Source of the DNA: an uncultured Rhodobacterales bacterium
Lineage (GTDB): Bacteria > Pseudomonadota > Alphaproteobacteria > Rhodobacterales > Rhodobacteraceae
DNA: 64,000 nt
Direction: 5' to 3'
Assembly: GCA_903873585.1 (NCBI GenBank)
Contig: CAIQOV010000007.1
Span: forward strand, 1,779 to 65,778
How positions within the stretch are numbered: the stretch's first letter is position 1; each line of letters opens with the position of its first letter. Shown in pieces: positions 3,323 through 64,000 of this stretch. The notes under the pieces are model-generated. The model ran no database searches. It saw nothing but the letters and a program-made list of their open reading frames with translations, and was not told the DNA's origin. Both the position numbers and the translations under genes were made by a program.

Positions 3323-3328
3323 CAAACG

Positions 3329-3358
3329 AAAAGGCCCCGCCAAATGGCAGGGCCTTTT
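3329..3358. terminator. Bidirectional intrinsic terminator between the convergent sulfotransferase-like gene and rplT
   Basis: AAAAGGCCC-cgcc-aaat-ggca-GGGCCTTTT, with A/T tracts on both sides. Confidence 0.85.
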
Positions 3359-3380
3359 ACGAAATCTGACGCTTCCGATG

Positions 3381-3752
3381 TTAGGCGGATGCGGGCAAAG
3401 CGGCTTTGGCTTGGGCTGCGATGGCGTTGAACGCCTCGGGCTCATGCACGGCCAGATCGGCCAGAACTTTGCGGTCAACCATGATGCCAGCCTTGTTCAG
3501 GCCATCAATCAGGCGCGAATAGGTGAAGGCCGGGTCGAACAGGCGAACGGCAGCGTTGATACGCGCAATCCACAAGACGCGGAACTGACGCTTGCGGGCC
3601 TTACGGTCACGCGTTGCGTATTGTTGGGCCTTGTCGACGGCCTGTGTGGCTGTCTTGAAGTTGGTCGAGCGGGCGGCATAATAGCCAGCCGCTTTGGCGA
3701 TCACCTTACGGTGGCGGGCGTGGGTGACAACGCCGGATTTGACGCGGGACAT
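3381..3752 (-). CDS. rplT: 50S ribosomal protein L20
   Basis: [17 protein letters not shown]...[25 protein letters not shown]...[10 protein letters not shown]. Confidence 0.99.
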
Positions 3753-3764
3753 ATCTGGCTCTCC

Positions 3765-3965
3765 TTAGCGGTTGTACGGCATGTATTTTTTGACGATCTT
3801 TTCGTCCGACGCGTTGAGGATCATGGTCCCCGCCGAGTTGCGGACGAATTTCGCCGTGCGCTTGATCATGCCGTGACGCTTGCCTGCGGGGCCTGCGATC
3901 ACGTGGCCGTTGGCGGTAAAGCGGAAGCGCTTTTTGGCCGCCGATTTGGTCTTCATCTTGGGCAT
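3765..3965 (-). CDS. rpmI: 50S ribosomal protein L35
   Basis: [14 protein letters not shown]...GKRHGMIKR, 66 aa from ATG 3965, upstream of rplT. Confidence 0.98.
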
Positions 3966-4150
3966 TTCGATCTCCGTCGTTGCAGGCACGACTCGGCATG
4001 CCACGTGGGCCGGCCGTGCGGGGTATTCAGAGGCTGCCGTATAAGGGCAGGTAGGGGCGGGCGCAAGGACCTATGCGCAGGTTTGTCATCGGTCCGTCAC
4101 ATAGGGTGGGGCAGGCCAGCACTGGCCAGCTTGCCCCAGAATTTAAGCCA

Positions 4151-5596: not shown

Positions 5597-5835
5597 GCCT
5601 TGATCCTTTATGTCGCGTTCACAGGTTACGGTGGGCCGATGGCCTTATGGCCCAATTGCCCGAAAGGAGCAACTGGCCGCGGCAGGGATAAGTCACGCCG
5701 CGTGACGATTAAGCAAAGGTCCGGTGAAGCTTTGGGCGCGATGCAGGTTTTTTGGCCCCTTGGGGCGGTTTTTTGGCGGGCGGTGATTCCCTTTCGGGTG
5801 GGTGTTGGTTAGGATTGACGACCAAAGGAGACGCC

Positions 5836-6579
5836 ATGCCGCCGTTTCACATCCTTGGCGCTGACCGCCCCGGCCGCTGGCTGGTGACGTGCGACCACGC
5901 CACGAACCGTGTGCCGGACGATGTGTGTGGCGGTGATCTTGGAGTGTCCGCGCAAGACATGGCGCGGCACATCGCGTGGGATGTGGGTGCGCGCGGGCTG
6001 GCCGAGGCTTTGGGTGCGGCGCTGAACAGCCCCGTGATTTGCAGCGATTTCAGCCGTCTGGTGATTGATGCCAACAGGGGCGAAGAAGACCCCACGCTGG
6101 TGATGCAGCTTTATGACGGCACGATCATTCGCGGAAACGCGGGCATTGGTGAGGCCGAGGTGGCGCGCCGTCTGCAAACCCTGCACCGCCCCTATCACGC
6201 AGCGCTGGCCCAACTGGCGGCACGGCGGGCGGATACGGTGATTGTGGCGATCCATTCTTTCACCCCCTGCCTGCGCGGTCGCGCCCCGCGGCCTTGGGCG
6301 GTGGGGGTGCTGTATTCGCACCTTGACCCGCGCTTGTCGCAGGCGTTGATTGCGGGTCTGCGCGCTGACGGCGATCTGTGCGTGGGCGATAACGAACCCT
6401 ATGACGGCCATCTACCCGGCGATTCGATTGATATGCACGCGCTGCAAATGGGGCGGCACAACACGCTGATCGAACTGCGCTCTGATCTGATTGCTGATCG
6501 TGCTGCACAACACCACTGGGCCAAGCGACTGGCGCCCGCCCTGATACAAGCCTTGGAGGCTGTCGATGCACCTAGATGA
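5836..6579 (+). CDS. N-formylglutamate amidohydrolase family protein
   Basis: TCDHATN, HIAWDVGA, FSRLVIDANR, HSFTP, GDNEPY, IELRSDL; RBS AAGGAG before ATG 5836. Confidence 0.88.
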   Translation: MPPFHILGADRPGRWLVTCDHATNRVPDDVCGGDLGVSAQDMARHIAWDVGARGLAEALGAALNSPVICSDFSRLVIDANRGEEDPTLVMQLYDGTIIRGNAGIGEAEVARRLQTLHRPYHAALAQLAARRADTVIVAIHSFTPCLRGRAPRPWAVGVLYSHLDPRLSQALIAGLRADGDLCVGDNEPYDGHLPGDSIDMHALQMGRHNTLIELRSDLIADRAAQHHWAKRLAPALIQALEAVDAPR

Positions 6580-6898
6580 TGCGACCCGTGAAAAGCTGGA
6601 AGCCGCCGCCTTTCGCGCGCTGATGCACCACCTGCTCGAAAAGCGCCCCGATGTGCAAAACATCGACCTGATGAACCTTGCAGGCTTTTGCCGCAACTGC
6701 CTAAGCCGCTGGTATAATGAAGCCGCCACCGCCGAAGGCATCGCGATGACGAAAGACGAGGCCCGCGAAATCGTTTATGGTATGCCCTATGCCGATTGGG
6801 TGGCGCAAAACCAAACCCCCGCTGATGCTGGTAAGACAGCGGCGTTTGAAACGGCTTTCCGCACCAATGTTGGCGGCGAACCGCCCAAACACGGCTAA
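6566..6898 (+). CDS. DUF1244 family protein
   Basis: EAAAFRALMHHL...DVQNIDLMNLAGFCRNCLSRWY...REIVYGMPY. Confidence 0.9.
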   Translation: MHLDDATREKLEAAAFRALMHHLLEKRPDVQNIDLMNLAGFCRNCLSRWYNEAATAEGIAMTKDEAREIVYGMPYADWVAQNQTPADAGKTAAFETAFRTNVGGEPPKHG

Positions 6899-6922
6899 GG
6901 TTGCTGGCTGCCGCCGGCGTAG

Positions 6923-7143
6923 GCGGGGGGGGCAGCCCCCCCGATCGCCCCCGCCGAAGGGGCCTTTTGCCCCTCCGGACCTCCCCGAGGGTATGTTCGC
7001 CCAAGATGAAGCTGAAACAGGTTTGGGGGCCGAGGGCTGTAGCCTGCCCTTTGGCTATTTCATCTTGGCAAAACTACTCTACTGGGGGTGACGGGGGGGC
7101 GTAAGCCGCCCCCGTCGCGGGGGGTGCGGGAGGCAGCCCCCCG
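6923..7143. repeat. Inverted pair of REP-like GC-rich double-hairpin elements (6923-7011 reverse, 7058-7143 forward)
   Basis: Both begin (C/T)TTCATCTTGG..AA..TAC and continue with two GGGG-loop-CCCC hairpins; a related shorter copy lies at 56270-56314. Confidence 0.7.
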
Positions 7144-7160
7144 TGTGTGGGCCAGCGCTG

Positions 7161-7694
7161 CTAGCGCATCGCGTCTAGAACCGCCAAAGTCTCAGGCGCG
7201 CTCCAATCCGCGCCGCCGATTAAGCGCGCCACTTCCATCCCCTGAGGGTTCACGATCACCGTCACCGGCAACCCCATAATCCCCATCTGATGCGCCAAGT
7301 CTTGTGTCGGGTCGCGCAACACGGTCAGGGTATGAACCCCCGCCTGATCCAAAAAGCGCTGAATAGCGGGCAAGGGGTTTGGGCCTGTGGCCACTGCCAC
7401 CACGGCAATATCTGGCCGCAGGGTGGCCAAGCGGTCCAGCGCGGGCATCTCTTCGCGGCAGGGCACGCACCATGTGGCCCATAGGTTCAACACCAGCCAT
7501 TTGCCCTTGGCCGCTTCCAAACCCGCAGCTTCGTCTGCCAGCCCCACCAACGCCACCTGCGGCAGAGGCTTTGGCTCTTCCAGCGTCAGCTTGGCCATCG
7601 CCCCTGTCAGCAAGCTTGGGTCCACCCCCCCCGCCACCGCCATATTTGCGCAAGCCAGAAAGGCCGTATAAAGGAAAGCCCGAATGATCCGCAT
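7161..7694 (-). CDS. tlpA: TlpA-family thioredoxin-like disulfide reductase with N-terminal signal/anchor
   Basis: [16 protein letters not shown] (CXXC) and [24 protein letters not shown]; divergent from argH. Confidence 0.85.
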
Positions 7695-7717
7695 CACACC
7701 TCGCAAAGGGGGCCGCC

Positions 7718-9118
7718 ATGACCCAATCCGAAAAACCTGCCGCCAATACCATGTGGGGCGGGCGCTTTGCCAGCGGGCCGGATGCGATCATGACGGCGAT
7801 CAACGCCTCGATCGGCTTTGACCAGCGCCTTTACGCCCAAGACATCGCGGGCTCTCGTGCCCATGCCGCCATGCTGGCCGCCACGGGTATCATCACCGAT
7901 AGCGATGCGCAGGCCATTCGGGAAGGCCTGCTCACGGTCTTGTCAGAGATTGAGAGCGGCAATTTCACCTTTCGCACCGATTTGGAAGACATCCACCTCA
8001 ACATCGAATCCCGCCTGACCGAGATTGTGGGCGATGCGGGCAAGCGGGTGCACACGGGTCGTTCGCGCAACGATCAGGTCGCCGTCGACTTTCGCCTGTG
8101 GGTGCGCGACCAGTGCGATGCGGCGGTTGCGGGCCTAACCGCGCTGATGCACGCCTTTTTGGCGCAGGCAGAGGCTGGGGCCGATTGGGTCATGCCGGGT
8201 TTTACGCATCTGCAAGTGGCCCAACCCGTCACTTGGGGCCATCATATGCTGGCCTATGTCGAAATGCTGGGCCGTGATCGGTCGCGCTTTGCCGATGCGC
8301 GCCGTCGGATGAACGAATGCCCCTTGGGTGCTGCGGCCTTGGCGGGCACGGGCTTTCCAATCGACCGGCACATGACCGCCGCCGCCTTGGGGTTTGATCG
8401 GCCCACCGCCAACAGCCTTGATTCCGTATCAGACCGCGATTTCGCGCTGGAATTCCTGTCAGCCTCTGCCATCTGTGCCACTCACCTGTCGCGCTTTGCT
8501 GAAGAGCTGGTGATCTGGTCCACCGCGCAATTTCGCTTTGTCAAACTGTCTGACAAGTGGACAACCGGCTCATCCATCATGCCGCAGAAAAAGAACCCCG
8601 ATGCGGCCGAACTGCTGCGGGCCAAGATCGGGCGGATTTTGGGGGCTACCGTGGCGCTGTTCACCGTGATGAAGGGTCTGCCCCTGACCTATTCCAAGGA
8701 TATGCAGGAAGACAAAGAACAGGTCTTTGATGCCGCCGACACGCTGATGCTGTCGCTTGCCGCCATGACAGGCATGGTCAGCGATATGACGGCGCAAAAA
8801 GACACGCTCAAAACCGCCGCCGCATCGGGCTTTTCCACCGCCACCGATCTGGCCGATTGGCTGGTGCGCGCCCTTGGCCTGCCCTTTCGCGAAGCGCACC
8901 ACATCACTGGCCGCCTTGTCGCCTTGGCCGAAAGCAAGGGCTGTGATCTGCCCGATCTGACCTTGGCCGAGATGCAATCCGCCCATCCCAATATCAACCA
9001 AGAGGTTTATTCCGTGCTTGGCGTCGAAAACTCGGTCCGTTCGCGGCAATCTTACGGCGGAACCGCGCCCGATCAGGTGCGCGCCCAAATTGCCCGCTGG
9101 AAAGCCGCGCTGGCGTAA
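7718..9118 (+). CDS. argH: Argininosuccinate lyase
   Basis: [45 protein letters not shown]. Confidence 0.98.
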
Positions 9119-52051: not shown

Positions 52052-53044
52052 ATGACGATGTCTCATGAAATGCGCGCAATTGCGATCACCGAATCCGGCG
52101 GGCCAGAGGTGTTGCAGCCCTGCCTTGTGCCCGTTCCCGTGCCTAGCCATGGGCAAATCATCATCCGTTTGGCCTATGCCGGTGTGAACCGCCCCGATGC
52201 ACTGCAACGCGCGGGGTCTTATGCGCCCCCCGTTGGGGCATCGCCGTTGCCGGGGTTGGAATGTTCGGGCACGGTGGTGGCTGTGGGGCCGGGTTGCACG
52301 CGCTATACAGAGGGCGATCAGGTTTGCGCCCTGCTGCCCGGTGGCGGTTACGCCGAATACGCCGCCTGTGCCGAGGCGCACGCCCTACCCATCCCGCAGG
52401 GCCTGTCGCTGCGCGATGCGGCCTGTTTGCCGGAAACCTGCTTTACCGTCTGGTCGAATGTGGTGATGCGCGGCGGGCTAAAGGCGGGTGAGCGGTTCTT
52501 GGTGCATGGCGGCACTTCTGGCATTGGGGTTACGGCCATTCAGATTGCCAAAGCCCTAGGCGCGCGGGTGTTTGCCACGGCGGGCAGTGATGACAAAGTG
52601 CGCATCTGCGAAGAGCTGGGCGCGGAATCTGCCCTGAACTACCGCACGCAAGACTGGGCGCAAATTCTGCGCAAGGCGGGCGGGATGAACCTGATCCTCG
52701 ATATGGTGGGCGGCACCTACCTGCCGCAAAACCTGCGCAGCTTGGCCGATGACGGGCGGCTGGTGCAAATCGCCTTCCTGCAAGGGGCCAAGGTCGAGGT
52801 GAACTTTGCCGAACTGATGATGCGCCGCCTGACGCTGACGGGATCAACCCTGCGCCCGCAATCCGACCTTGCCAAAGCCCGCATCGCCGCCGAAGTCGAG
52901 GCGCATGTCTGGCCCTTGGTTGCCGCTGGCAAGGTCAAAGTCGTGCTGGATAGCGAATTCCCCCTGACCGAAGCCGCCGCCGCCCATGCCCGTATCGAAG
53001 CCCCGGGGCATATCGGCAAGATCGTGCTAAAGGTGCAGGGCTAG
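52052..53044 (+). CDS. NAD(P)H-quinone oxidoreductase, PIG3 family (zinc-independent MDR)
   Basis: GVNRPDALQRAG, PGLECSG, GGGYAEY, HGGTSGIG, GSTLRP, GKIVL. Confidence 0.9.
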   Translation: MTMSHEMRAIAITESGGPEVLQPCLVPVPVPSHGQIIIRLAYAGVNRPDALQRAGSYAPPVGASPLPGLECSGTVVAVGPGCTRYTEGDQVCALLPGGGYAEYAACAEAHALPIPQGLSLRDAACLPETCFTVWSNVVMRGGLKAGERFLVHGGTSGIGVTAIQIAKALGARVFATAGSDDKVRICEELGAESALNYRTQDWAQILRKAGGMNLILDMVGGTYLPQNLRSLADDGRLVQIAFLQGAKVEVNFAELMMRRLTLTGSTLRPQSDLAKARIAAEVEAHVWPLVAAGKVKVVLDSEFPLTEAAAAHARIEAPGHIGKIVLKVQG

Positions 53045-53182
53045 CCCGCAGGCCCTACCACCAAAGCGGACACGCTTTCGCCAAAACGGGTCCGCTTGAT
53101 TGGTGTCGGATTGTTAACAAAAGTGCTATTGAAAGGTATTTCAATTCGGTGAAAGATACCAAAAACCCTGCTACCAGATAGA

Positions 53183-53210
53183 TTGACCTGTTACATTTAA
53201 AGGCTAAAAG
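53183..53210 (+). promoter_or_regulatory. Candidate sigma70 promoter of the secreted-protein gene
   Basis: TTGACC-16 nt-TAAAAG within an AT-rich block (53101-53210) that also carries palindromes TTGTTAACAA and ATTGAAA-N4-TTTCAAT. Confidence 0.4.
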
Positions 53211-53257
53211 CGGCGCGCGTTCCATCTTGGATGCTCTGAACACACGGAAATGATATC

Positions 53258-53656
53258 ATGAAAAAATTCCTCTTGGTTGCTGGCGTTGCCGCTGTCGCAA
53301 CAATCGGCGCTTCGGCTGCTATGGCTGGCGAATGCTCGGTCGCGTCGCTGAAAGGCCACTACACCTATTGGCTGCAAGGCTATGACGCCGAAGGCAAGCC
53401 CTACGCTGAAGTCGGTCAAGAACACTTCGACGGCGCTGGCGCTGTTGCGACCATCACCGGCGTTGCTGGCGCTGCCGAGCCGACCGCTGACAAAGGCACT
53501 TACACCGTTGCTGACGATTGCACCGGCACCGTGACCTACGAGTCGGGCGCTATCGACAAGATCTTCATCGCACCGTCGGGCGACAGCTTCGTGTTCTCCA
53601 GCGCTGTTGCAGGCGTGATCCAGTCGGGTGAAGACACCCGCGTGGACATGGACTGA
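53258..53656 (+). CDS. Small secreted beta-rich hypothetical protein with a Cys pair
   Basis: Signal peptide ending AMA/GE, ECSVASLKGHY...FDGAG...GTYTVADDCTGT, strong codon bias, own terminator. Confidence 0.85.
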   Translation: MKKFLLVAGVAAVATIGASAAMAGECSVASLKGHYTYWLQGYDAEGKPYAEVGQEHFDGAGAVATITGVAGAAEPTADKGTYTVADDCTGTVTYESGAIDKIFIAPSGDSFVFSSAVAGVIQSGEDTRVDMD

Positions 53657-53667
53657 TCTAAGACTTG

Positions 53668-53704
53668 CCCTGCCGCGCCCGTGAAGGGGGCGGCAGGGAG
53701 TTTT
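53668..53704 (+). terminator. Intrinsic terminator after the secreted-protein gene
   Basis: CCCTGCCG...CGGCAGGG-AG-TTTT. Confidence 0.75.
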
Positions 53705-53834
53705 GCGTCATCCGACCTATTCCCGACCGATTTGTCCATTCAAGTCTGCTGGCGCGCGTCAAGCGCATGATCCTTTCCCCGCGCCGTTGCATCGCCCTTT
53801 GGCCCGTGCAACGATGGCTTGTTAAGGGGGGGCT

Positions 53835-54761
53835 ATGTCGAAAATCATCATCTCTTGCGCTATCACAGGCTCTATCCATGTGCCCAGCCAATCGCCCTAT
53901 CTGCCGGTAACGGCGGCGCAGATTGCGGCATCTGCCATAGGTGCGGCGCAAGCGGGGGCCGCGATCTTGCACCTGCACGCACGCCACCCCGACACGGGCC
54001 GCCCCTCGGCTGACCCTGAACATTGGGCGGGGTTTTTGCCCGCGATCAAGGCGGGCACCGATGCCGTGGTGAACATGACCACCGGCGGATCGGCTGTGAT
54101 GACGCTGGACCAGCGCCTAGCCGCCCCCAAGGCCAACGCGCCCGAGATGTGCAGCCTGAACATGGGGTCGATGAACTTTGCCCTTTACCCGATGATTGAC
54201 CGGATTGCCCAGTTCAAGCACGACTGGGAAAAGCCCTTCTTAGAAAACTCTGACGATCTGGTGTTCAAAAACACACCCCGCGACATTGCCCATGTCTTGG
54301 CCGAAATGGGCCAAGCGCGCGGCGCAAGGTTCGAGTTTGAGTGTTATGACATCAGCCATCTGACGATGCTAAAGCATTTCGTCGATCGTGGCCTGATCCA
54401 ATGCCCGCTGTTCTTGCAGTTCGTCTTTGGTGTGTTGGGCGGAATGCCAGCGGAACCTGAGATTCTGACCCTGCTCAAACGCACCGCCGACCGGATGTTT
54501 GGCGACGGCTACCAGTTTTCCGTCCTCGCCGCAGGTCGTGCGCAGATGCCCATGGCGACGATGGCTGCGGCGATGGGCGGCCATGTTCGGGTTGGGCTAG
54601 AGGATAACTTGTACATCTCAAAGGGTGTGCTGGCCGAGTCGAACGCGCAACAGGTGGAATTGATCACCCAAATTGTCACCCGCCTAGGGCGCACCATCGC
54701 CACCCCCGATGAGGCGCGCGCGATGCTGGGCCTGAAAGGCCGCGACAAGGTGGCCTTTTGA
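53835..54761 (+). CDS. Beta-keto acid cleavage enzyme (BKACE/DUF849, Kce family)
   Basis: IISCAITGSIH, AGAAILHLHAR, CSLNMGSMNF, FEFECYD, GHVRVGLED. Confidence 0.92.
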   Translation: MSKIIISCAITGSIHVPSQSPYLPVTAAQIAASAIGAAQAGAAILHLHARHPDTGRPSADPEHWAGFLPAIKAGTDAVVNMTTGGSAVMTLDQRLAAPKANAPEMCSLNMGSMNFALYPMIDRIAQFKHDWEKPFLENSDDLVFKNTPRDIAHVLAEMGQARGARFEFECYDISHLTMLKHFVDRGLIQCPLFLQFVFGVLGGMPAEPEILTLLKRTADRMFGDGYQFSVLAAGRAQMPMATMAAAMGGHVRVGLEDNLYISKGVLAESNAQQVELITQIVTRLGRTIATPDEARAMLGLKGRDKVAF

Positions 54762-55252
54762 GCGACGCAATCTGCCCCAACGCAATCCGCACCGTCACCC
54801 CCGCCGATGTGCCCCGCCTGCGCGCACTGTTGCAGGCCCTATCAGACGAAGACGGCGGCACCTACCAAGTGGGGTCTCAAGCCGCCCTATCCCGCGCGCT
54901 TTTCGCCCCCGCCCCCCTGATCTTCGCCCTAATCGCCGACCAAGGCATGGCCTTTTACTACCCCGATTTCTCAACCCATCGAGGAGAGGCGGGGGTTTAC
55001 ATCCAAGACCTCTACGTCACCCCCCAAGCGCGCGGCACGGGCCTCGCCCGCGCTTTGCTGGCCGCTGTGATGCACCACCAAGCCTGGGGCGCGCGGTTCA
55101 TGACGCTGGGTGTCAGCCCCGAAAACATCGCCGCCACAAGGTTTTACGCCAAAACAGGCTTTACCCCGCGCGGCTACGCTATGATGATCCTTGACGGCTT
55201 ATCCCTGAAAGAACTGGCCCCGAAAGACTTGGCCCCGAAAGACTTGGCATGA
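54758..55252 (+). CDS. GNAT acetyltransferase, spermidine/spermine N1-acetyltransferase-like (TTG start)
   Basis: FYYPDFSTHRGEAGVYIQDLYVTPQARGTGLARALL, NIAATRFY. Confidence 0.82.
   Translation: MSDAICPNAIRTVTPADVPRLRALLQALSDEDGGTYQVGSQAALSRALFAPAPLIFALIADQGMAFYYPDFSTHRGEAGVYIQDLYVTPQARGTGLARALLAAVMHHQAWGARFMTLGVSPENIAATRFYAKTGFTPRGYAMMILDGLSLKELAPKDLAPKDLA
55215..55248 (+). repeat. In-frame 15-bp tandem repeat at the 3' end of the GNAT gene
   Basis: TGGCCCCGAAAGACT x2 plus TGGC, encoding ...ELAPKDLAPKDLA. Confidence 0.9.
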
Positions 55253-56265
55253 TCACCTTCTATAACCCCGACCAACGTGCGCATGACCCCAAGTTCTTCC
55301 TGTCGTCGGGCGCGCCTATGGCGTGCCCCGAACAGCCCACCCGCATCGACGCCCTGTTGGCAGGTGTGGCCACCCTTGGGCTGCAAGTGCAAACCCCCGC
55401 CGACCAAGGCATAGGCCCGATCGCCGCCATCCACCCGCAGCGCTATCTGACGTTTTTGCAAACGATCCACGCCCGCTGGCAACATATTCCGGGCGCAAGT
55501 TCCGAGGTGATCCCCAACATCCACCCCGCCAACCGCACCGATGGCTACCCGCTGTCCGCCGTAGGACAGGCGGGCTTTCATATGACTGACACCTCCTGCC
55601 CGATCAGCGAGCAAACGTGGGGGGCGGCCTATGCCTCGGCCCAAACCGCCATCGCGGGCAGCGAGGCTGTCTTGCAAGGCGCGCGCTCTGCCTATGCGCT
55701 TTGCCGCCCGCCGGGCCATCATGCCTTTGGCGAACTGGCCGGCGGGTTTTGCTATCTGAACAACACCGCGATTGCCGCACAGCAACTGGTCCTGTCGGGT
55801 CGCAAAGTGGCGATCTTGGATGTCGACCTGCACCATGGCAACGGCACCCAAGGCATCTTTTACGACCGCCCCGATGTGCTGACGGTATCAATTCACGCCC
55901 ACCCCGAACGCTACTATCCCTTCTTCTGGGGCTATCCGGATGAGCGCGGCAGCGGCGCGGGCGAAGGTGCCAACCTCAACCTCTGCCTACCCCGTGGCAG
56001 CGCTGATGCCGCCTTCTTGGCCGAACTTGACCGCGCCTTGCACGCCATCACCCTGTGGGGCGCGGATACGCTGGTTCTGGCCCTTGGCCTTGATGCGTTT
56101 GAAGGCGATCCCTTCGCGGGCCTTGCCGTCACCACCCAAGGCTTTGCCCAAATAGGCCAACAAATCGCGGCCCTCAACCTGCCCACCCTGATCGTGCAAG
56201 AAGGCGGCTATCTGTGCCCAGAATTGGGCCAAAACCTGTCAGCCGTCCTAAATGCCTTCCTCTAA
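55249..56265 (+). CDS. Histone deacetylase-family protein, acetylpolyamine amidohydrolase-like
   Basis: PEQPTR, PNIHP, DTSCPI, CRPPGHHA, DVDLHHGNGTQ, GLDAFEGDP, QEGGY. Confidence 0.9.
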   Translation: MITFYNPDQRAHDPKFFLSSGAPMACPEQPTRIDALLAGVATLGLQVQTPADQGIGPIAAIHPQRYLTFLQTIHARWQHIPGASSEVIPNIHPANRTDGYPLSAVGQAGFHMTDTSCPISEQTWGAAYASAQTAIAGSEAVLQGARSAYALCRPPGHHAFGELAGGFCYLNNTAIAAQQLVLSGRKVAILDVDLHHGNGTQGIFYDRPDVLTVSIHAHPERYYPFFWGYPDERGSGAGEGANLNLCLPRGSADAAFLAELDRALHAITLWGADTLVLALGLDAFEGDPFAGLAVTTQGFAQIGQQIAALNLPTLIVQEGGYLCPELGQNLSAVLNAFL

Positions 56266-56269
56266 TCCC

Positions 56270-56314
56270 TTTCATACGTGCCCAAATATCCCGGGGTCCG
56301 GGGCAGCGCCCCGG
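56270..56314 (+). repeat. Short copy of the REP-like family seen at 6923-7143
   Basis: TTTCATACGTGCCCAAATATCCCGGGGT-CCGGGGC-AGC-GCCCCGG. Confidence 0.6.
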
Positions 56315-56362
56315 CTTTGCCAACTCTGCCTTTTCCAGCCCCAAACCCCAGAAAGATAACAC

Positions 56363-57229
56363 TTGCGCACCTCAACCCCCTTAAAGGGCATCGCCCTGAT
56401 GCTGGCCGCCATGGCGATTTTGCCCGGCATTGATGTCTTGGCCAAGTTCTTGGGCCAAGAGGGTGTGCCCGTGATGCAAATCGTCTGGGCGCGGTTGACC
56501 TTTGGGGCGCTGCTGACCTTGCCCTTCGCCGCCCGCCACACCGGTGTGCGCGGCCTGATGCCAGATCAACCCGGCATTCACACCTTGCGCGCCAGCCTGT
56601 TGATGGCCGCCACTTTCTTTTTCTTCTGTGCGCTCAAATACCTGCCCATTGCCGATGCGCTGGCGATTTTCTTTGTTCAGCCGCTCGTGGTAACAGCCCT
56701 TTCGCCGCTGATCTTGAAAGAAACCGTAGGCCCCCGCCGCTGGGCCGCCGTTTGCGTGGGCTTTATCGGCACGCTGATCATCATCCGCCCCGGCATCACC
56801 GCGATCAATCCCGGCAGCCTGTTTGCCTTGGCCGCAGGCACCAGCCTTGCGCTGTATTTCCTGCTGACACGGCGCATATCGGGCCGCGCCAAGGCCATTG
56901 TCACCACGTTTCACACCAACGCCTTGGGCTGCTTGCTTGCCTCGGTTCTCGTCACCTTTGTCTGGCAAACCCCCACGCTGTCGCAATGGGGCCAGTTCCT
57001 AGCGCTCGCCGCCATCGCCAACGTCGGCCATTATTGCATCGTGCGCGCCTATGACCATGCCGAGGCATCGCTCCTCGCCCCGCTGGCCTATACCGAGATG
57101 GTCACCTCAACCCTCATGGGCCTGATCTTCTTTGGCGATTTTCCCGACCGCTGGACATTCCTAGGCGTGGCCATCTTGATCGCCTGCGCCATCTACATCT
57201 CAACCCGCAGCCACAAGACCCAAACCTAA
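56363..57229 (+). CDS. DMT/EamA-family transporter
   Basis: About 10 TM helices; LKYLPIADA, ETVGPRRWAAV, AYDHAEASLLAPLAY, FGDFPD. Confidence 0.87.
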   Translation: MRTSTPLKGIALMLAAMAILPGIDVLAKFLGQEGVPVMQIVWARLTFGALLTLPFAARHTGVRGLMPDQPGIHTLRASLLMAATFFFFCALKYLPIADALAIFFVQPLVVTALSPLILKETVGPRRWAAVCVGFIGTLIIIRPGITAINPGSLFALAAGTSLALYFLLTRRISGRAKAIVTTFHTNALGCLLASVLVTFVWQTPTLSQWGQFLALAAIANVGHYCIVRAYDHAEASLLAPLAYTEMVTSTLMGLIFFGDFPDRWTFLGVAILIACAIYISTRSHKTQT

Positions 57230-57242
57230 CGCCCCCCGTGTC

Positions 57243-59459
57243 TCACGGGCGGCTTGGGCTGTCCGATAAGCGGATCTCAACAGGCCCCGCCGTCACCCGC
57301 CCAATCAGGGCCGCGCTGACATCTCCCGCTGCGTGCAATTGCGCGGTCAAACCTTCCGCCTGATCCCACGGCACCGACGCCAGCAAACCGCCACAAGTTT
57401 GCGGATCAAACAACAAAGCCCCCCGCGCGCTGGCCAACCCTGCGCCACGTATCCGCCCCAAAAGGGCGGCGCGGTTGGCGGGGGCGAGGTAAGAGTGTTC
57501 GCCCAAATCCGCCAAAGCCTCTGCCCCCATCATCAGCGGCACAGCGTCCAACCAAAGCTGCGCCCCCGTGGCCGAGGCGTCCATCATCTCCATCACATGC
57601 CCCGCCAAGCCAAAGCCTGTCACGTCCGTCATCGCATGGGCGGGGGGGGCGAGAATGGCAGAGGCTGGCCCCAAAGGACGGCGCATTTGGGCAAAACACG
57701 CGGCCACCACCTCGCCCAGCATCAGGGGGGGCACCTGCGCCATGGCCATCTCTGCCGCAAGGATCGTTCCTGATCCCAGCGCTTTGGTCAGAATAAGCGC
57801 ATCGCCCACCTGCGCCCCCGCTTTCGTTAGCGCGCGGCTTGCAAGCCCTGTTACGGTGAACCCCAGCGTCAGTTCCGCCCCTTGGCTGGTATGCCCGCCC
57901 ACCACATCGGCCCCGGCCTTGGCAAAGACGGCAGAGGCTGCGCCCATCACCTCGGCCAAGGTGCGGGCCTGTAAGGTGGGCGACAGGCGCGGCAGGATCA
58001 CTTGGGCCAAAGCCACTTGCGGCTGTGCCCCCATCGCCCAGATGTCACCCAAGGCATGAACCGCTGTCAGTTCAGCCATCAGGCGCGGGTCGCAGGTGAA
58101 GCTGCGCAGATGGTCGGTGGTCAGCACCTGCACACCGTGATCGGTGCGCAAAATCGCGGCATCATCGCCCGCACCCGCCACCACCTCGGCCCGTTGCGGC
58201 GGGGGCAGGGCCTGCATCATGGCCGCAAGCCCCGCCGACCCCACCTTGGCTCCGCAGCCACCGCACAGCGGCTTGTCGCCCAAAGCGTCAGCCAGCCCCA
58301 CAACGGCGGGTAAGGGCAGCGCGGGCGCGGGCATCGCGGGATAATCAGCGAACTTCGCCATAAAACGGCGGTCGATGCGGTCTTTCATCCGCCACAGCCA
58401 AGCCCCCCCGCTGCGCAGGCCCCATTTGTCGGCCAAGGCCGAGCGGTCACCTAGCGAGATCAGCTTGAGATAATCGCGCTGCGGTTGGAAGCTTTGCAAC
58501 GCATCGCCTGTCAGCGCGGCGCGCAGGTTGGCCAAAAGCACAGGGGCTGCGCGCACGGCATAGACACCGGCCTTAGGGCGCGGCGCGTGGGTTAGGTGGG
58601 CGCAATCGCCTGCGGCAAAGATCATTGGGTCAGACGAGCGCAGATGCGCGTCGACTGCCACAAAACCGTCGGTTAGCGTCAGCCCCGTGCTTTGCACCCA
58701 AGCCTGCGGGCGTGCGCCTGCGACTGTCAGCGTGAAATCCGATGCAATCCTTCGCCCGTCAGACAAAACCACCGCCCCCGCCTCGGCCCGCATCGGGCTT
58801 AGGTTGGACAACACCTCGACCTGATAGGCCTTTAGCGCCGCCATCAGCCCCGCACGGCTGGCGGGGGCCATCTGTGCCAAAAGCTGCGCGCCACGGTCAA
58901 CCAGCGTGACATGCGGCGCGGCCCCCATCGACCGCAACCGATGGGCTGATGCCAGTGCCAGTTCCACCCCGCCAATGCCGCCGCCAATCACCACCACCCG
59001 CGGTGCAGGCAAAGCGCGGGCCACAAACGCCTCCCATGCGCGGGCGTAATCGCCCAAGGGCTTGGCCGAGCGGGTAAAGTCGCCAAACCCCGCAAGGTCG
59101 GGCAAGTCAGAGGTGATGCCGATGTCAATACTTGCCAGATCATAGGGCAGGGGGGGGCGGCTTTGCAGGATCACGGTTTGGGCATCGCGGTCGATGCCAA
59201 TGGCGCGGTCTAATATCAACCGCGCACCGGCAAAGCGGGCCAGTCGCACAAGGTCGATCATTATGTCAGCGCGCTGGTAATGCCCCGCGATCAGGCCGGG
59301 TAACATGCCGGTATAGGGGGCCACCGGATCGGGGTTGATCAGTGTCAGCCGCACGCCGGCCAAGGGCTTCATTGCCCACATCCGCGCCACCAACGCATGG
59401 GTGTGCCCGCCGCCAATTAGCACAAGGTCGCGTATCTGGGGCAGGTTTGGGTCTTGCAT
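57243..59459 (-). CDS. selD: Selenide, water dikinase with an N-terminal FAD/NAD(P)-dependent oxidoreductase domain
   Basis: N-terminal GGGHTH, YTGMLPG, GGGIGGVE, FAAGDC, KAGVYAVR; C-terminal LCGGCGAKV, GDDAA, TTDHL, GGHT, TDVTGFGLAGH, FDPQTCGGLL. Confidence 0.9.
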   Translation of the reverse strand: MQDPNLPQIRDLVLIGGGHTHALVARMWAMKPLAGVRLTLINPDPVAPYTGMLPGLIAGHYQRADIMIDLVRLARFAGARLILDRAIGIDRDAQTVILQSRPPLPYDLASIDIGITSDLPDLAGFGDFTRSAKPLGDYARAWEAFVARALPAPRVVVIGGGIGGVELALASAHRLRSMGAAPHVTLVDRGAQLLAQMAPASRAGLMAALKAYQVEVLSNLSPMRAEAGAVVLSDGRRIASDFTLTVAGARPQAWVQSTGLTLTDGFVAVDAHLRSSDPMIFAAGDCAHLTHAPRPKAGVYAVRAAPVLLANLRAALTGDALQSFQPQRDYLKLISLGDRSALADKWGLRSGGAWLWRMKDRIDRRFMAKFADYPAMPAPALPLPAVVGLADALGDKPLCGGCGAKVGSAGLAAMMQALPPPQRAEVVAGAGDDAAILRTDHGVQVLTTDHLRSFTCDPRLMAELTAVHALGDIWAMGAQPQVALAQVILPRLSPTLQARTLAEVMGAASAVFAKAGADVVGGHTSQGAELTLGFTVTGLASRALTKAGAQVGDALILTKALGSGTILAAEMAMAQVPPLMLGEVVAACFAQMRRPLGPASAILAPPAHAMTDVTGFGLAGHVMEMMDASATGAQLWLDAVPLMMGAEALADLGEHSYLAPANRAALLGRIRGAGLASARGALLFDPQTCGGLLASVPWDQAEGLTAQLHAAGDVSAALIGRVTAGPVEIRLSDSPSRP

Positions 59460-59603
59460 CGGGGTTTGATCCTTGGGCTGGGCCACCCTACCGCGCGGCG
59501 CTGCCACATGAAAGCGGGCGATGGCGGCGCGGGCTTGCTTGACAGACCTGCGCTTTTGCTGAACATTTGTATAGCAGGCACATGGCCCGCGACAGGAGAC
59601 CCG

Positions 59604-61625
59604 ATGGATCCCGCCCACGCCATTTTGTTAGAGCCGGTCAAGATCGGCCCCGTCACGGCCCCGAACCGCTTTTACCAAACCCCGCACGCCACCGGCTTTG
59701 GTTGGCAAAGGCCGCAAGCCTCTGCCGCGTTGCGCGGGGTGAAGGCGGAAGGTGGCTGGGGGGTGGTGTGTACCGAGTACTGCTCGATCCATCCCACGTC
59801 GGATGATAGCCCTTCGGCCTATCTGACGCTGTGGGGCGAAGAAGATGTTGCCCCCTTGGCGGCCACGGCGGATGCCATCCATGCCCACGGCGCGCTGGCG
59901 GGGGTGGAACTGTGGCACGGCGGGGCCCATGCGTCTAACCGCATGACTCGACTGCCCACGATTGCCCCGCAAAGCCAACCGGCGCTGTATCACCTGCCCA
60001 CGGCAGCGTGCGCGATGGATCTGTCTGACATTCGCGAATTTCGCCAATGGCAGCGCGCGGCCGCCCTGCGGGCTAAGCGGGCGGGGTTTGACATTGTCTA
60101 TGTCTACGCCGGCCACGATTACCTGCCCTTCCAATTCCTATCCCGCCGCACCAACCAGCGCAGCGATGCTTACGGCGGATCGTTGGAAAACCGTGTGCGC
60201 TTGCTGCGCGAGATGATCGAGGAAACCAAAGAGGCCGTGGGCGACACCTGTGCTGTCGCCCTGCGCATGGCGGTGGATGAATTGCACGGCCCCCTTGGCA
60301 TCACCGCCGAAGGCGAGGGCCGCGACATCGTCGCCATGCTGGCCGACCTGCCCGACCTGTGGGATGTGAACTTGGCGGGCGCTTTGGGCAATGACAGCAA
60401 ATCGGCGCGCTTCTCGCCTGAAGGGTATCAGGAAGACTATATCCGCTTTGTCAAAGGGCTGACGGGCAAGCCTGTGGTGTCGGTGGGGCGGTTCACCTCT
60501 CCGGACAGGATGGTCGCGCAGATCAAGCGCGGGGTGCAAGATTTCATCGGCGCGGCGCGCCCCTCGATTGCCGACCCCTTCCTGCCAGCCAAGATCCGCG
60601 AAGGGCGGGCGGATGAAATCCGTGAATGCATCGGCTGCAACATTTGCCGCGCGGCCAATAACGAAGGCGTCAGCCTGCGCTGCACCCAGAACCCGACGAT
60701 GGGGGAAGAATGGCGCAAGGGCTGGCATCCTGAACGCATAGCGCCCCATGCGCCCGATAAGGTGCTGGTGGTGGGCGCCGGCCCTGCGGGGCTTGAAGCG
60801 GCGCTGAGTTTGGGGCGGCGCGGGCTGAACGTGTCGGTGGCCTTTGCCGAACGCCAAGCGGGGGGCCGGATCAACCGCGAAAGCACCTTGCCGGGGCTGG
60901 CCACATGGGGCCGTGTGCGCGATTGGCGGCTGACGATGCTGGCCAAGCTGCCCAACGTGACGCTGTATCCTGAAAGCGCCATGACGGCTGACGATGTGGC
61001 GGGCTTTGGCGCGGATCATGTCGTGCTGGCCACGGGGTCGGTCTGGCGGCGTGACGGGGTGGGCGTGCTGGGCATGACGCCGCGCGCCTTTGCGGGGGCT
61101 TTGACGCCGGATGATATCTTTGCAGGGGCCAAGGTAAGCGGCCCCGTGGTGATCTATGATGACGAGCATTATTTCATGGCAGGGGCCTTGGCCGAACGGC
61201 TGGCGGGGCAGGGCCATGACGTCACCTATGTGACGCCGCAAAACATGGCCTCGGCTTGGACGGTGTATACTGACGAACAGGGCTTTGTGCAGGCACGGTT
61301 GATCGAAGCGGGGGTGAAGCTGCAAGTGGCGCGCTATGTCACGGGCTGGGCCGATGGCGCGGTGGTGGCAGAATGTGCTTACACAGGTCGCGCCTTGCCC
61401 GCCGTGCCCTGCGGCACGCTTATCTTGGCGACAGGCCGTGTGCCGGTGGATGGGCTGTATCAAACGCTTGTCGGGCGCGTGGCGTCGTTGGCGCGGGTGG
61501 GCGATTGTTTGATGCCCTCGTCAATGGCCGATGCGATCTATTCCGCCCATGCCTATGCCCGCGAGCTTGGCGCGGCCCCCCAGCCCCTGCGCCGCGAACT
61601 GCCGCCCCACCGTGCTGCGCTATGA
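59604..61625 (+). CDS. Trimethylamine/histamine dehydrogenase-family Fe-S flavoenzyme
   Basis: NRFYQTPH, KAEGGW, TEYCSI, GFDIVYVY, YGGSLENR, ARPSIADPFLP, CIGCNIC-X11-C [4Fe-4S], GEEWRKGWHPE; RBS AGGAGA. Confidence 0.9.
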   Translation: MDPAHAILLEPVKIGPVTAPNRFYQTPHATGFGWQRPQASAALRGVKAEGGWGVVCTEYCSIHPTSDDSPSAYLTLWGEEDVAPLAATADAIHAHGALAGVELWHGGAHASNRMTRLPTIAPQSQPALYHLPTAACAMDLSDIREFRQWQRAAALRAKRAGFDIVYVYAGHDYLPFQFLSRRTNQRSDAYGGSLENRVRLLREMIEETKEAVGDTCAVALRMAVDELHGPLGITAEGEGRDIVAMLADLPDLWDVNLAGALGNDSKSARFSPEGYQEDYIRFVKGLTGKPVVSVGRFTSPDRMVAQIKRGVQDFIGAARPSIADPFLPAKIREGRADEIRECIGCNICRAANNEGVSLRCTQNPTMGEEWRKGWHPERIAPHAPDKVLVVGAGPAGLEAALSLGRRGLNVSVAFAERQAGGRINRESTLPGLATWGRVRDWRLTMLAKLPNVTLYPESAMTADDVAGFGADHVVLATGSVWRRDGVGVLGMTPRAFAGALTPDDIFAGAKVSGPVVIYDDEHYFMAGALAERLAGQGHDVTYVTPQNMASAWTVYTDEQGFVQARLIEAGVKLQVARYVTGWADGAVVAECAYTGRALPAVPCGTLILATGRVPVDGLYQTLVGRVASLARVGDCLMPSSMADAIYSAHAYARELGAAPQPLRRELPPHRAAL

Positions 61626-63125: not shown

Positions 63126-64000
63126 TTATCCGCCCCAAGTGCGGCCCAAAAGCGCCAACCAGTTGTCGCAGCACAGTTTCTTCACCAGAGCCTCGCCATA
63201 TTGATGGTCCAGCATGGCTTGCTGCAAGGCGGGCAGGCCGGCCACATCGCCGATGCCTTGGGGGATGGTTGCGCCGTCAAAGTCAGACCCAAGGCCGACA
63301 TTGTCTTCGCCCAAGTGGGTGATCAGGTGGTCAAGGTGCGACAGCACATCCTCCCACCCCATATCCGCCGATTGCTTGCCATCGCGGCGCAGGAAAGAGG
63401 TGGCGAAGTTTAGGCCCACCATGCCGTTGGATGCCTTGACCACCGCCAGTTGCCGGTCGGTCAGGTTGCGGCTGGATTGGGTGATGGCATGGGCGTTGGA
63501 ATGCGTGGCGACCAAGGGCGCGGTCGAAAGGGCCGCGACATCGTCAAAGCCCTTTTCGGTCATGTGGCTTAGATCGAGCATGATTTTTAGCTCGTTACAG
63601 GCCACCACCAAGCGCTTGCCCGCATCGGTCAACCCGCCGCCGGTGTCGGGCGACGAGGGGTAGGCAAAGGGCACGCCGTGGCCAAAGATCGTGGGGCGCG
63701 ACCAGACGGGGCCAAGCGAGCGCAGGCCCATCGCGTGAAAGCCGTAGAGCGCATCCAGATCGGGGCCAATCGCCTCGGCCCCTTCCATATGCAGGATGCC
63801 CGAAATCACGCCTGCCGCCATATTGGCGCGAATCTCGGCCACGGAACGCACGATTTTGAACTTGCCCTGCGAGGCGCGCTCCATCCACAGCATATGGTTC
63901 GCCATGGCCCAAGCCGTGGGCAAAGCGCCTTCGGCAGAAATCAGCGCGGGCAGGGGCAGGCGGTAGGGCGGGTTTTCCATCAACTGGTGATAGTCGATGC
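63126..64000 (-). CDS. Membrane dipeptidase (peptidase M19) family; 5' end lies beyond the window
   Basis: HMEGAE, GPVWSR, DLSHM, ATHSNA, SRNLTD, GLGSDFDG; frame open to the window edge. Confidence 0.9.
   Translation of the reverse strand, partial: IDYHQLMENPPYRLPLPALISAEGALPTAWAMANHMLWMERASQGKFKIVRSVAEIRANMAAGVISGILHMEGAEAIGPDLDALYGFHAMGLRSLGPVWSRPTIFGHGVPFAYPSSPDTGGGLTDAGKRLVVACNELKIMLDLSHMTEKGFDDVAALSTAPLVATHSNAHAITQSSRNLTDRQLAVVKASNGMVGLNFATSFLRRDGKQSADMGWEDVLSHLDHLITHLGEDNVGLGSDFDGATIPQGIGDVAGLPALQQAMLDHQYGEALVKKLCCDNWLALLGRTWGG

Follow-up and report, generated by a model that had tools for sequence, protein, structure and literature searches.

The aerobic pathway of L-beta-lysine breakdown in Pseudomonas B4 was reportedly worked out, together with its enzymes, by the Barker laboratory in about 1973–81. 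It consists of N6-acetylation of beta-lysine, an N6-acetyl-beta-lysine transaminase (EC 2.6.1.65), a 3-keto-6-acetamidohexanoate cleavage enzyme and a 4-acetamidobutyryl-CoA deacetylase-thiolesterase (EC 3.5.1.51). EC 2.6.1.65 exists in KEGG. No genes assigned to the pathway were found in the papers searched, an earlier proposal in Bastard et al. 2014 or Bellinzoni et al. 2011 being possible, and the NetSyn preprint on the genomic contexts of beta-keto acid cleavage enzymes (BKACEs) makes no mention of a deacetylase, acetyltransferase, lysine or transaminase. In M. ramosa ApaH, one of the acetylpolyamine amidohydrolases (APAHs), the polyamine's distal ammonium is bound by Glu106 (PMC11532494).

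The window analysed here, a 64,000-nt stretch of DNA from an uncultured Rhodobacterales bacterium (contig CAIQOV010000007.1, positions 1,779 to 65,778), encodes a BKACE, a GNAT acetyltransferase and an APAH-type deacetylase in that order, followed by an EamA transporter (Table 1). A preliminary description of the locus had not recognised this combination as a described pathway. That holds for the genes, none of which was found assigned to such a route, but not for the enzymes, which as a set match those of the B4 pathway. The cassette is proposed, with a probability of about one half, to be the core of an acetyl-protected catabolic route for beta-amino acids, with L-beta-lysine or N6-acetyl-beta-lysine as the best-guess substrate.

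Layout and enzymes of the cassette

The open reading frames lie in the window exactly where they were first described, and the sequence at both junctions bears out the 4-bp overlaps, TTGA and ATGA, that had been noted between them. At the BKACE/GNAT junction (CTTTTGAGC) the TTG start of the GNAT gene overlies the TGA stop of the BKACE gene (54758–54761), and at the GNAT/deacetylase junction (GGCATGATC) an ATG overlies a TGA (55249–55252). No ATG, GTG or TTG start other than this TTG lies 5' of the I-R motif that is conserved at the N terminus in the GNAT family. The two overlaps are predicted to couple translation of BKACE, GNAT and deacetylase, and its recurrence in dozens of genomes puts the arrangement far beyond chance. 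The DMT transporter said to follow the trio was likewise recovered, as an EamA protein matching PF00892.

Table 1. Positions of genes and sequence elements of the cassette within the window
Feature	Position	Strand	Length	Family or location
TTGCAT box, candidate -35 element or operator of cassette promoter	53787..53792	+		43–48 nt 5' of BKACE ATG
BKACE, beta-keto acid cleavage enzyme	53835..54761	+	308 aa	PF05853
GNAT N-acetyltransferase, SSAT/thialysine type, TTG start	54758..55252	+	164 aa	PF00583
15-bp tandem repeat, 3.1 copies	55203..55248	+		inside GNAT 3' end
APAH-type HDAC-family deacetylase	55249..56265	+	338 aa	PF00850
GC-rich hairpin motif, dispersed repeat	56291..56314	+	24 nt	between deacetylase and EamA
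EamA/DMT transporter	56363..57229	+	288 aa	PF00892, 2 domains

The BKACE matches PF05853 with 361 bits (gathering score 24.8), residues 3–300 covering profile positions 1–274 of 274, and aligns over its full length with BKACE15 of Paracoccus denitrificans (E 3e-110, 371 bits). Residues H46, H48, E169, R252, E256 and D257 do not vary among 80 relatives and have counterparts in the alignment with BKACE15, for which E171 and R254 were used as the catalytic residues in the comparison. The His-x-His motif and a Glu presumably serve as the BKACE zinc ligands, as in the Kce structure.

The GNAT protein matches PF00583 with 46 bits and carries the acetyl-CoA motif (R-x-x-G-x-G/A) as RGTGLAR at residues 92–98. 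Among solved structures it comes closest to thialysine N-epsilon-acetyltransferase 12jc (E 5e-13) and to 2fe7 (E 2e-12); 2bei (E 5e-4) and diamine acetyltransferase 2 are also represented, in agreement with the SSAT-like label given to it at first. The AblB model TIGR03827 was not among its NCBIfam matches at E 0.01 or better, and no AblB was found anywhere in the window's genome, while control genomes matched. GNAT evolves fast; the 15-bp tandem repeat adds about 10 C-terminal residues that its relatives lack in the alignment.

The deacetylase matches PF00850 with 233 bits, and its nearest solved relatives are the acetylpolyamine amidohydrolases 3men, 9gkz, 6phr and 3q9b, as its original designation as APAH-type had implied. 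The motifs RPPGHH (153–158), DVDLHH (191–196) and EGGY (318–321) and residue D282 are present, with the catalytic and zinc residues intact. At the end of the L2 loop, Val105 occupies the place of Glu106 of M. ramosa ApaH. The equivalent residue is V, T, A, I or L, never acidic, in 57 of 57 BKACE-linked deacetylases and is E or D in five of eight unlinked homologues; the feature is indicative rather than absolute, as PsApaH has a His at this position yet deacetylates polyamines. A homologue search with the deacetylase returned close relatives under generic names only. At two further loci a 49% identical deacetylase lies 1.7 kb 5' of a sister-clade BKACE, with an M20 gene and a peptide ABC transporter, and the ORFs between deacetylase and BKACE have no Pfam match.

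Upstream of the cassette, CGTTGCATC is preserved in the otherwise diverged upstream regions of five of eight aminotransferase-less relatives, and the preceding 132-aa gene terminates in its own hairpin. A simple sigma-70 scan gave nothing at the site of the TTGCAT box, a simple promoter and terminator scan of the locus gave no more than chance, and no Rfam families were found in 53000–57400. The 24-nt motif is invariant at the deacetylase-EamA site in six relatives and has seven copies genome-wide, against none for a reversed-pattern control; the hairpin between deacetylase and EamA folds no better than its shuffles. In comparisons within the window's clade at identity above about 60%, dN/dS is 0.05–0.2 for all four genes (0.06–0.15 for EamA), which are thus under purifying selection. 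The same values rule out a decaying remnant.

Conservation of the trio and the full operon in relatives

Among 44 loci, defined as BKACE relatives at 67% identity or more with enough flank, the deacetylase lies directly 3' of the BKACE in 42. A GNAT of a single orthologous family stands between them in 37 and is missing in seven. The trio is co-conserved. With the deacetylase as query, 24 of 33 Rhodobacterales loci contain the BKACE and 25 of 33 an aminotransferase; beside about a quarter of the deacetylase orthologues the BKACE is absent. The deacetylase-linked BKACEs, including that of the window, form one clade (SH-aLRT 100) apart from 33 BKACE15-like rows of 56–62% identity, in none of which a deacetylase is adjacent; BKACE15 itself is not in this tree. 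Eight fixed differences mark the linked clade (A116, D140, P148, F196, V200, F228, H250 and R286), three of which adjoin invariant catalytic-motif residues.

The usual operon consists of a LysR regulator gene, an ABC importer, a class III aminotransferase (for example L046:6637-7998), the BKACE, in most cases the GNAT, and the deacetylase, sometimes with an FAD oxidase and RidA at its end. The aminotransferase ends at the BKACE start in most relatives. Such operons occur in 31 of 200 sampled Rhodobacterales species (about one in six) and in 24 of 85 genera, the window's own counted. Culturable carriers include Stagnihabitans tardus CYK-10, which has the trimmed form, Hoeflea marina DSM 16791, Thalassovita taeanensis DSM 22007, Cribrihabitans marinus DSM 29340 and Pelagimonas varians DSM 23678, which has no GNAT. 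The trio of the window, together with the transporter, is a pared-down core of a catabolic operon that many alphaproteobacteria carry. In four loci (L037, L045, L050 and L043) the same slot holds a second, non-orthologous class III aminotransferase, and in four relatives this type-2 enzyme is fused to the BKACE. That a non-orthologous aminotransferase fills the same slot argues for a transaminase being needed just before the BKACE. The binding proteins of the importers vary among operons, being either PotD/F-like (SBP_bac_8) or of amino-acid type (SBP_bac_3); the similarity of the PotD/F-like protein to PotD/PotF (E about 1e-11) is too remote for a ligand to be named.

The freshwater Paracoccaceae clade to which the window belongs has lost the linked aminotransferase and the ABC importer and has gained EamA. 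No orthologue of the linked aminotransferase is present in the window or its genome, where the best match has 38% identity, and the ABC importer is absent from both. An orthologue of the type-2 aminotransferase (82%) is encoded elsewhere in the genome (G000:C26:66678-67997), unlinked to the cassette. In 10 of 13 same-genus loci, as well as in L033–L036 and L057, the deacetylase is followed by EamA, which is partial at a contig end in one more; in this clade it takes the place of the ABC importer. Genes for a TMADH-like amine dehydrogenase and an MttB methyltransferase adjoin the BKACE divergently, or lie within 3 kb of it, in the window and nine relatives, and this linkage was kept even though the BKACE-to-SelD segment is inverted in the window relative to L057. 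In L035 an M19 dipeptidase and a Dpp-type ABC transporter immediately precede the BKACE, and they are also found close to it in L057, L036 and the window.

A proposed acetyl-protected route and its alternatives

In the proposed route, GNAT would acetylate the distal amino group, so that the later amino-keto acid cannot cyclise, and a class III aminotransferase would then turn the beta-amino group into a beta-keto group. With acetyl-CoA, the BKACE would cleave the resulting acetamido beta-keto acid, yielding acetoacetate and an acetamido-acyl-CoA, which would be 4-acetamidobutanoyl-CoA if the substrate is beta-lysine, as the enzyme set suggests. The APAH-type enzyme would finally deacetylate the acetamido-acyl-CoA or acid, giving 4-aminobutanoyl-CoA or GABA. 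The preliminary description had suggested a protect/deprotect catabolic route for a diamino acid among other options, and this gains support from the relatives, in which the trio is part of a regulated import-and-breakdown operon with a class III aminotransferase. At the window locus the pathway is incomplete because the linked aminotransferase and ABC importer are absent: the operon would be cut to the first, third and fourth steps plus the EamA permease, and transamination would occur in trans, the unlinked class III enzyme being the most plausible candidate for it. Neither the window's genome nor four genomes that bear the operon yielded a lysine 2,3-aminomutase, KamA (TIGR00238), so an external supply of beta-lysine would be needed; we know of no abundant aquatic source of it.

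The same chemical logic applied to another amino-beta-amino acid, such as 3,5-diaminohexanoate, a homologue of different chain length, or a beta-amino acid derived from a peptide or polyamine, is a possible though unlikely alternative. It would account for carriers in which no KamA was found, for the variation in importer type and for that in add-on genes, which comprise FAD oxidase and RidA, M20 amidohydrolase and racemase, or, in the window's clade, the M19 dipeptidase and Dpp-type transporter. Against it, biochemical work has, to our knowledge, shown precisely this set of four activities for beta-lysine only. Moreover, the BKACE family screen by Bastard et al. included a 6-acetamido beta-keto acid on which group G1 enzymes were active (PMC4922564, Table S1), and this compound is the beta-lysine-derived one.

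It is rather doubtful that the trimmed cassette has become part of a new pathway with TMADH/MttB or with M19 and the Dpp-type importer. Here a dehydrogenase would replace the transaminase, and a different, possibly methylated or peptide-bound, amine would be demethylated or released and then split via an acetyl-protected beta-keto acid. The persistence of the TMADH/MttB linkage through the inversion, the position of the M19 and Dpp-type genes and the loss of linked aminotransferase and importer in just this clade would fit such a pathway. However, the linkage does not extend beyond one genus-level clade and may be inherited synteny, and L034 and L035 lack TMADH/MttB. Outside the clade the pair is absent, with only a distant (46% identical) MttB homologue 3' of the deacetylase at a single locus. 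TMADH-family enzymes act on N-methyl groups or on amines of primary carbons and are not known to oxidise beta-amino acids.

Handling of polyamines or diamines (putrescine, cadaverine or diaminopropane), with GNAT and APAH as a writer/eraser pair or an acetylation route and the BKACE unrelated or in a side reaction, is improbable. The resemblance of the GNAT to diamine and thialysine acetyltransferases and of the deacetylase to APAHs, the PotD/F-like binding protein of many full operons and three stand-alone deacetylase-FAD oxidase pairs (L132, L135 and L150) point in its direction. Yet breakdown of polyamines gives no beta-keto acid, whereas no gene is linked to the deacetylase more tightly than the BKACE and GNAT is the dispensable member, and none of the linked deacetylases has the acidic residue for binding the distal ammonium. 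A writer/eraser pair controlling an amine pool, raised when the locus was first described, finds no support, the deacetylase being tied to the BKACE and aminotransferase rather than to polyamine genes and devoid of that residue.

That the BKACE is a 3,5-dioxohexanoate:acetyl-CoA acetone transferase acting on neutral polyketide-like beta-keto acids, with GNAT and deacetylase as bystanders, is highly improbable: it does match the corresponding equivalog NF053538 (493.1 bits, cut-off 430) and is clearly similar to BKACE15, which acts on 3,5-dioxohexanoate, but the physiological role of BKACE15 is not itself established, its genomic context being reported as aromatic degradation (PMC11961710), the linked BKACEs fall into a clade of their own, marked by fixed differences, and no triacetate or phloroglucinol genes lie nearby.

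If the acetyl-protected beta-amino-acid route is correct, it would provide genes for an N6-acetyl-beta-lysine transaminase, a 3-keto-6-acetamidohexanoate cleavage enzyme and a 4-acetamidobutyryl-CoA deacetylase, three activities so far known only from biochemistry of the 1970s and 1980s. The BKACE sub-clade now labelled automatically as '3,5-dioxohexanoate transferase' would need re-annotation, and an APAH-family deacetylase would have a small acyl-CoA or acid as its substrate instead of polyamines or proteins. Given its frequency among the sampled Rhodobacterales species, the operon would define a source of nitrogen and carbon that has so far gone unrecognised in aquatic alphaproteobacteria. 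The trimmed form of the window illustrates the dismantling and rewiring of such operons, with a DMT permease in place of the importer and a transaminase that has been lost or has given way to a paralogue.

Comparison with known systems

Kce shares with the window BKACE the fold, the zinc site and the type of reaction, in which acetyl-CoA is used and acetoacetate formed. It is only a distant relative (E 7e-43; NF052387 248 bits, cut-off 382), and its substrate is a free cationic amine in a lysine fermentation that involves neither acetylation nor deacetylation. BKACE15 (PDB 8RIO, 8RIP and 9HNF; NF053538) is among the closest solved relatives and has the catalytic Glu and Arg in common with the window BKACE. 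Its group is active on neutral polar and hydrophobic beta-keto acids. The window enzyme belongs to the deacetylase-linked clade with its eight fixed differences, which the tree sets apart from the BKACE15-like rows, and its genomic context is different.

The SSAT/thialysine GNATs (12jc, 8yv7 and 2bei) have the same fold and acetyl-CoA motif as the window GNAT, and the nearest of them acetylate the omega-amine of lysine-like compounds, although identity is low. AblB of methanogens is biosynthetic and makes an osmolyte, whereas the window GNAT lies in a catabolic setting. The bacterial acetylpolyamine amidohydrolases (M. ramosa ApaH, 3q9b; Pseudomonas PsApaH, 9gkz; P. aeruginosa PA0321 and PA1409), cluster 4 of Graf et al. 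2024 (PMC11532494), share with the window deacetylase the HDAC fold, RPPGHH, EGGY, all zinc and catalytic residues and about 40–50% identity. The window enzyme departs from them in Val105, in the clade-specific Ser103 and His111, in being encoded with BKACE and aminotransferase in operons rather than with polyamine genes, and in its proposed substrate, an acetamido-acyl-CoA or acid.

The B4 pathway belongs to a Pseudomonas, and the substrate of the window cassette is putative. At the window locus its transaminase and an importer are absent, the transaminase lying directly 5' of the BKACE in most relatives, while acetyltransferase, cleavage enzyme and deacetylase are encoded together, as conserved in 37–42 of 44 loci. 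In the full operon the four enzyme types of the B4 pathway correspond step for step, in the same order and with the same logic of protection and deprotection.

Genes and junctions of the cassette

The boundaries assigned to the first three ORFs in the preliminary description were exact, both 4-bp overlaps it had claimed (TTGA between BKACE and the GNAT, ATGA between the GNAT and the deacetylase) are present, and the DMT transporter placed after the trio is an EamA protein. The GNAT starts with TTG, the sole possible start 5' of the family's conserved N-terminus, and the BKACE and deacetylase start codons are consistent with solved homologues aligning from residue 1–2. The family labels also stood. 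The top solved relatives of the GNAT, called SSAT-like, are a thialysine N-epsilon-acetyltransferase and a Pseudomonas GNAT, with diamine acetyltransferase 2 further down the list, and those of the deacetylase, called APAH-type, are four acetylpolyamine amidohydrolases. All catalytic residues of BKACE and the deacetylase are intact.

Features at and near the cassette (window positions)
Feature	Position	Strand	Detail
BKACE	53835-54761	+	PF05853, full length, 361 bits
Small GNAT	54758-55252	+	PF00583
HDAC-family deacetylase	55249-56265	+	PF00850, 233 bits
EamA/DMT transporter	56363-57229	+	
TTGA overlap	54758-54761		BKACE/GNAT
ATGA overlap	55249-55252		GNAT/deacetylase
Tandem repeat	55203-55248		unit CCCCGAAAGACTTGG, 15 bp, 3.1 copies
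Hairpin motif	56291-56314		CCGGGGTCCGGGGCAGCGCCCCGG, 24 nt, GC-rich
Fusion protein	57243-59618	-	791 aa
BKACE-to-fusion segment	53258-59618		inverted relative to L057
M19 membrane dipeptidase	63126-63983	-	cut by window end

The tandem repeat lies within the 3' end of the GNAT gene and adds about 10 residues (…APKDLAPKDLA) that are absent from the nearest relatives; it is in frame, and the overlap with the deacetylase is preserved. In six relatives with diverged flanks, the hairpin motif that separates the deacetylase gene from EamA is unchanged at this site. Because it is found 7 times in the genome (5 copies exact), it is a dispersed REP-like element.

Co-conservation and the full operon

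The order BKACE-GNAT-deacetylase was kept in 13/13 same-genus genomes examined despite rearranged flanks, with EamA next in 10. A BKACE scan with one genome per species yielded 80 loci. Where BKACE identity was at least 67% and enough downstream sequence was available, the deacetylase lay immediately 3' of BKACE in 42/44 loci (exceptions L070 and L077), and none of the 32 loci at 56–62% identity with enough flank had an adjacent deacetylase; the two sets form separate clades of the BKACE tree (SH-aLRT 100 each). An ORF of 143–202 aa separates the two genes in 37 of the 44 loci, all 26 aligned examples belonging to one GNAT family, and the remaining seven have a gap of 25–116 nt in its place. 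From the other side, of 200 Rhodobacterales species genomes sampled apart from the window's own, 31 held deacetylase orthologues (at least 57% identity); with the window's own counted, 24/85 genera did. The 33 loci found in this way include BKACE in 24 and an aminotransferase in 25; about a quarter of the orthologues are without BKACE, several as deacetylase-FAD oxidase pairs. By these two-way counts the trio is co-conserved, contrary to the refuting condition set in the preliminary description. BKACE and the deacetylase are tightly paired, with the GNAT as a third member that is common but dispensable.

The stand-alone pairs, with a DAO-family oxidase, are at L132, L135 and L150 (genomes G156, G144 and G077), and G144 and G156 carry one on top of a full operon copy. 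In Azospirillum formosense (L110 and L112, about 2800-8920) a 49% identical deacetylase lies 1.7 kb upstream of a sister-clade BKACE, beside a ketopantoate-reductase-like gene, an M20 peptidase and a peptide ABC transporter, and this association may have arisen separately.

Operon architecture was drawn from clustered neighbouring ORFs and from Pfam and NCBIfam scans. Outside the window's clade the usual operon begins with a divergent LysR regulator and includes an ABC importer, either PotD/F-like (SBP_bac_8) or amino-acid-type (SBP_bac_3), and a class III aminotransferase (about 450 aa) whose gene runs up to the BKACE start. BKACE, the GNAT where present, and the deacetylase follow, often with a DAO-family FAD oxidoreductase and RidA; GNAT-less roseobacter loci instead have a gene for an M20 amidohydrolase and one resembling alanine racemase. 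The differences in importers and add-on genes between lineages suggest that separate lineages may take different, related substrates.

The linked aminotransferase falls with omega-transaminases of the amine:pyruvate type. Since these can take amines on secondary carbons, it would be suited to converting a beta-amino acid to a beta-keto acid, which is exactly what BKACE requires. At four loci, which span two BKACE sub-clades (L037, 6661-8001; L045; L050; L043), the slot directly upstream of BKACE is filled by a second kind of class III aminotransferase (type 2), 37–40% identical to the usual one and 85–86% identical among the four. Such non-orthologous displacement argues that a transaminase would be functionally required there.

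The trimmed form in the window's clade

The window (G000:C7:1779-65778) is part of a 3.2-Mb freshwater Paracoccaceae genome that shares its GTDB genus with Stagnihabitans tardus CYK-10. In the window's clade (the window, loci L033-L036, L039, L047 and L057, and same-genus genomes) neither an aminotransferase nor the ABC importer was found at the cassette locus; EamA is present in most members. The window's genome lacks an orthologue of the usual linked aminotransferase (best match 38%); it has an 82% identical type-2 orthologue at G000:C26:66678-67997 (L120:10649-12001), a candidate for acting in trans. This gene is single-copy in 28/31 genus genomes, lies on another contig than BKACE wherever both were mapped in the genus, and has unrelated neighbours in the window's genome (carbonic anhydrase, SbtA and a TPR protein). 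Purifying selection acts on each of the four cassette genes (dN/dS 0.05–0.2, in comparisons above about 60% identity), and a TTGCAT box 43–48 nt upstream of the BKACE start is conserved in 5/8 trimmed loci. Judged from these sequence signals, the trimmed cassette appears to be a functional unit, with a conserved upstream region of its own, and not a wreck.

The clade also has a pair of genes for a TMADH-like dehydrogenase and an MttB methyltransferase near the cassette, together with an M19 dipeptidase and a Dpp-type ABC system, company that may be plain inherited synteny or new wiring. Owing to the segment inversion relative to L057 (BKACE identity 93.5%), the TMADH/MttB pair is divergent beside BKACE in that close relative and downstream in the window. 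The fusion protein, conserved beside the cassette in close relatives, joins a pyridine nucleotide-disulphide oxidoreductase domain (residues 64–355) to AIRS/AIRS_C as in selenophosphate synthetase (484–780). The M19 gene of the window is convergent with MttB; directly upstream of BKACE, L035:1383-7713 holds an M19 gene with the genes of a Dpp-type ABC importer (SBP_bac_5 plus two permeases and two ATPases). Genes for DMFA2_C (N,N-dimethylformamidase beta-like) and an S9 peptidase recur shortly 3' of EamA in several relatives of the trimmed clade (L034:4319-7824, L036, L044, L035).

Proposed substrate and probable correspondence with the beta-lysine pathway

The interpretation in the preliminary description was supported in part: of its two proposed roles, a writer/eraser pair controlling an amine pool was not upheld, and protect/deprotect catabolism was supported by the enzyme set and by operon architecture in relatives. 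The latter role had been put forward for a polyamine, a diamino acid or an amino-keto acid. In M. ramosa ApaH, Glu106 salt-bridges the distal ammonium of the polyamine (PMC11532494), whereas the window's deacetylase has Val105 there; no acidic residue occupies this position in any of 57 linked deacetylases (V/T/A/I/L in all), and Glu or Asp does in 5/8 unlinked homologues. This absence makes a polyamine an unlikely substrate. Ser103 and His111 are likewise specific to the linked clade. Eight fixed differences separate the linked BKACEs from the BKACE15-like clade, of which F196, F228 and H250 adjoin the invariant active-site residues Q195, S229 and R252. The NCBIfam equivalog label, 3,5-dioxohexanoate:acetyl-CoA acetone transferase, derives from what BKACE15 does in vitro; the physiological role of that enzyme is given as unknown (PMC11961710). 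The label probably over-reaches for the linked clade.

The genes would fit an order in which an amine is acetylated, a beta-amine transaminated, the beta-keto acid cleaved with acetyl-CoA, and the acetyl group removed. Acetylation is chemically sensible, since cyclisation would be expected of a 6-amino-3-oxo acid with its amine left free. With neither lysine 2,3-aminomutase in the window's genome or four operon-bearing genomes (TIGR00238) nor AblB in the window's genome (TIGR03827), a beta-lysine-type substrate must be imported; no plentiful supply of beta-lysine or its acetyl derivative in aquatic settings is known to us.

The enzyme set of cassette and full operon presumably corresponds to the aerobic L-beta-lysine pathway of Pseudomonas B4, reportedly established by Barker's group, the likeness lying in acetylation, transamination, acetyl-CoA cleavage and deacetylation. 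There, beta-lysine is said to be converted to N6-acetyl-beta-lysine and, by EC 2.6.1.65, to 6-acetamido-3-oxohexanoate, which a cleavage enzyme reportedly splits with acetyl-CoA into acetoacetate and 4-acetamidobutanoyl-CoA; a deacetylase-thiolesterase (EC 3.5.1.51) is said to yield acetate, GABA and CoA. EC 2.6.1.65 exists in KEGG (R04029). Bastard et al. screened BKACEs on substrates that included a 6-acetamido beta-keto acid, and group G1 is listed as active on it (PMC4922564, Table S1); G1 is the group whose substrates are neutral polar and hydrophobic compounds, 3,5-dioxohexanoate among them. This activity, the absence of the acidic residue from the linked deacetylases and the BKACE clade differences independently support a beta-lysine-type reading. 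We put the probability of acetyl-protected beta-amino-acid cleavage, with beta-lysine as best guess, at roughly 0.5; beta-lysine or N6-acetyl-beta-lysine specifically is somewhat less likely and would be a tentative assignment.

The literature search, which left Bastard et al. 2014 outside its scope, found no gene assignment for a pathway of the Pseudomonas B4 type. The cassette's parts all come from known families (BKACE, SSAT-like GNAT, APAH-like HDAC, EamA) and the pathway logic is already known from old enzymology; contributed here are the trimmed form without the aminotransferase and with EamA, along with the evidence on how selection acts on it, the replacement of one aminotransferase type by another and the in-trans candidate, the BKACE clade split, the deacetylase's absent acidic residue and the two-way co-conservation counts.
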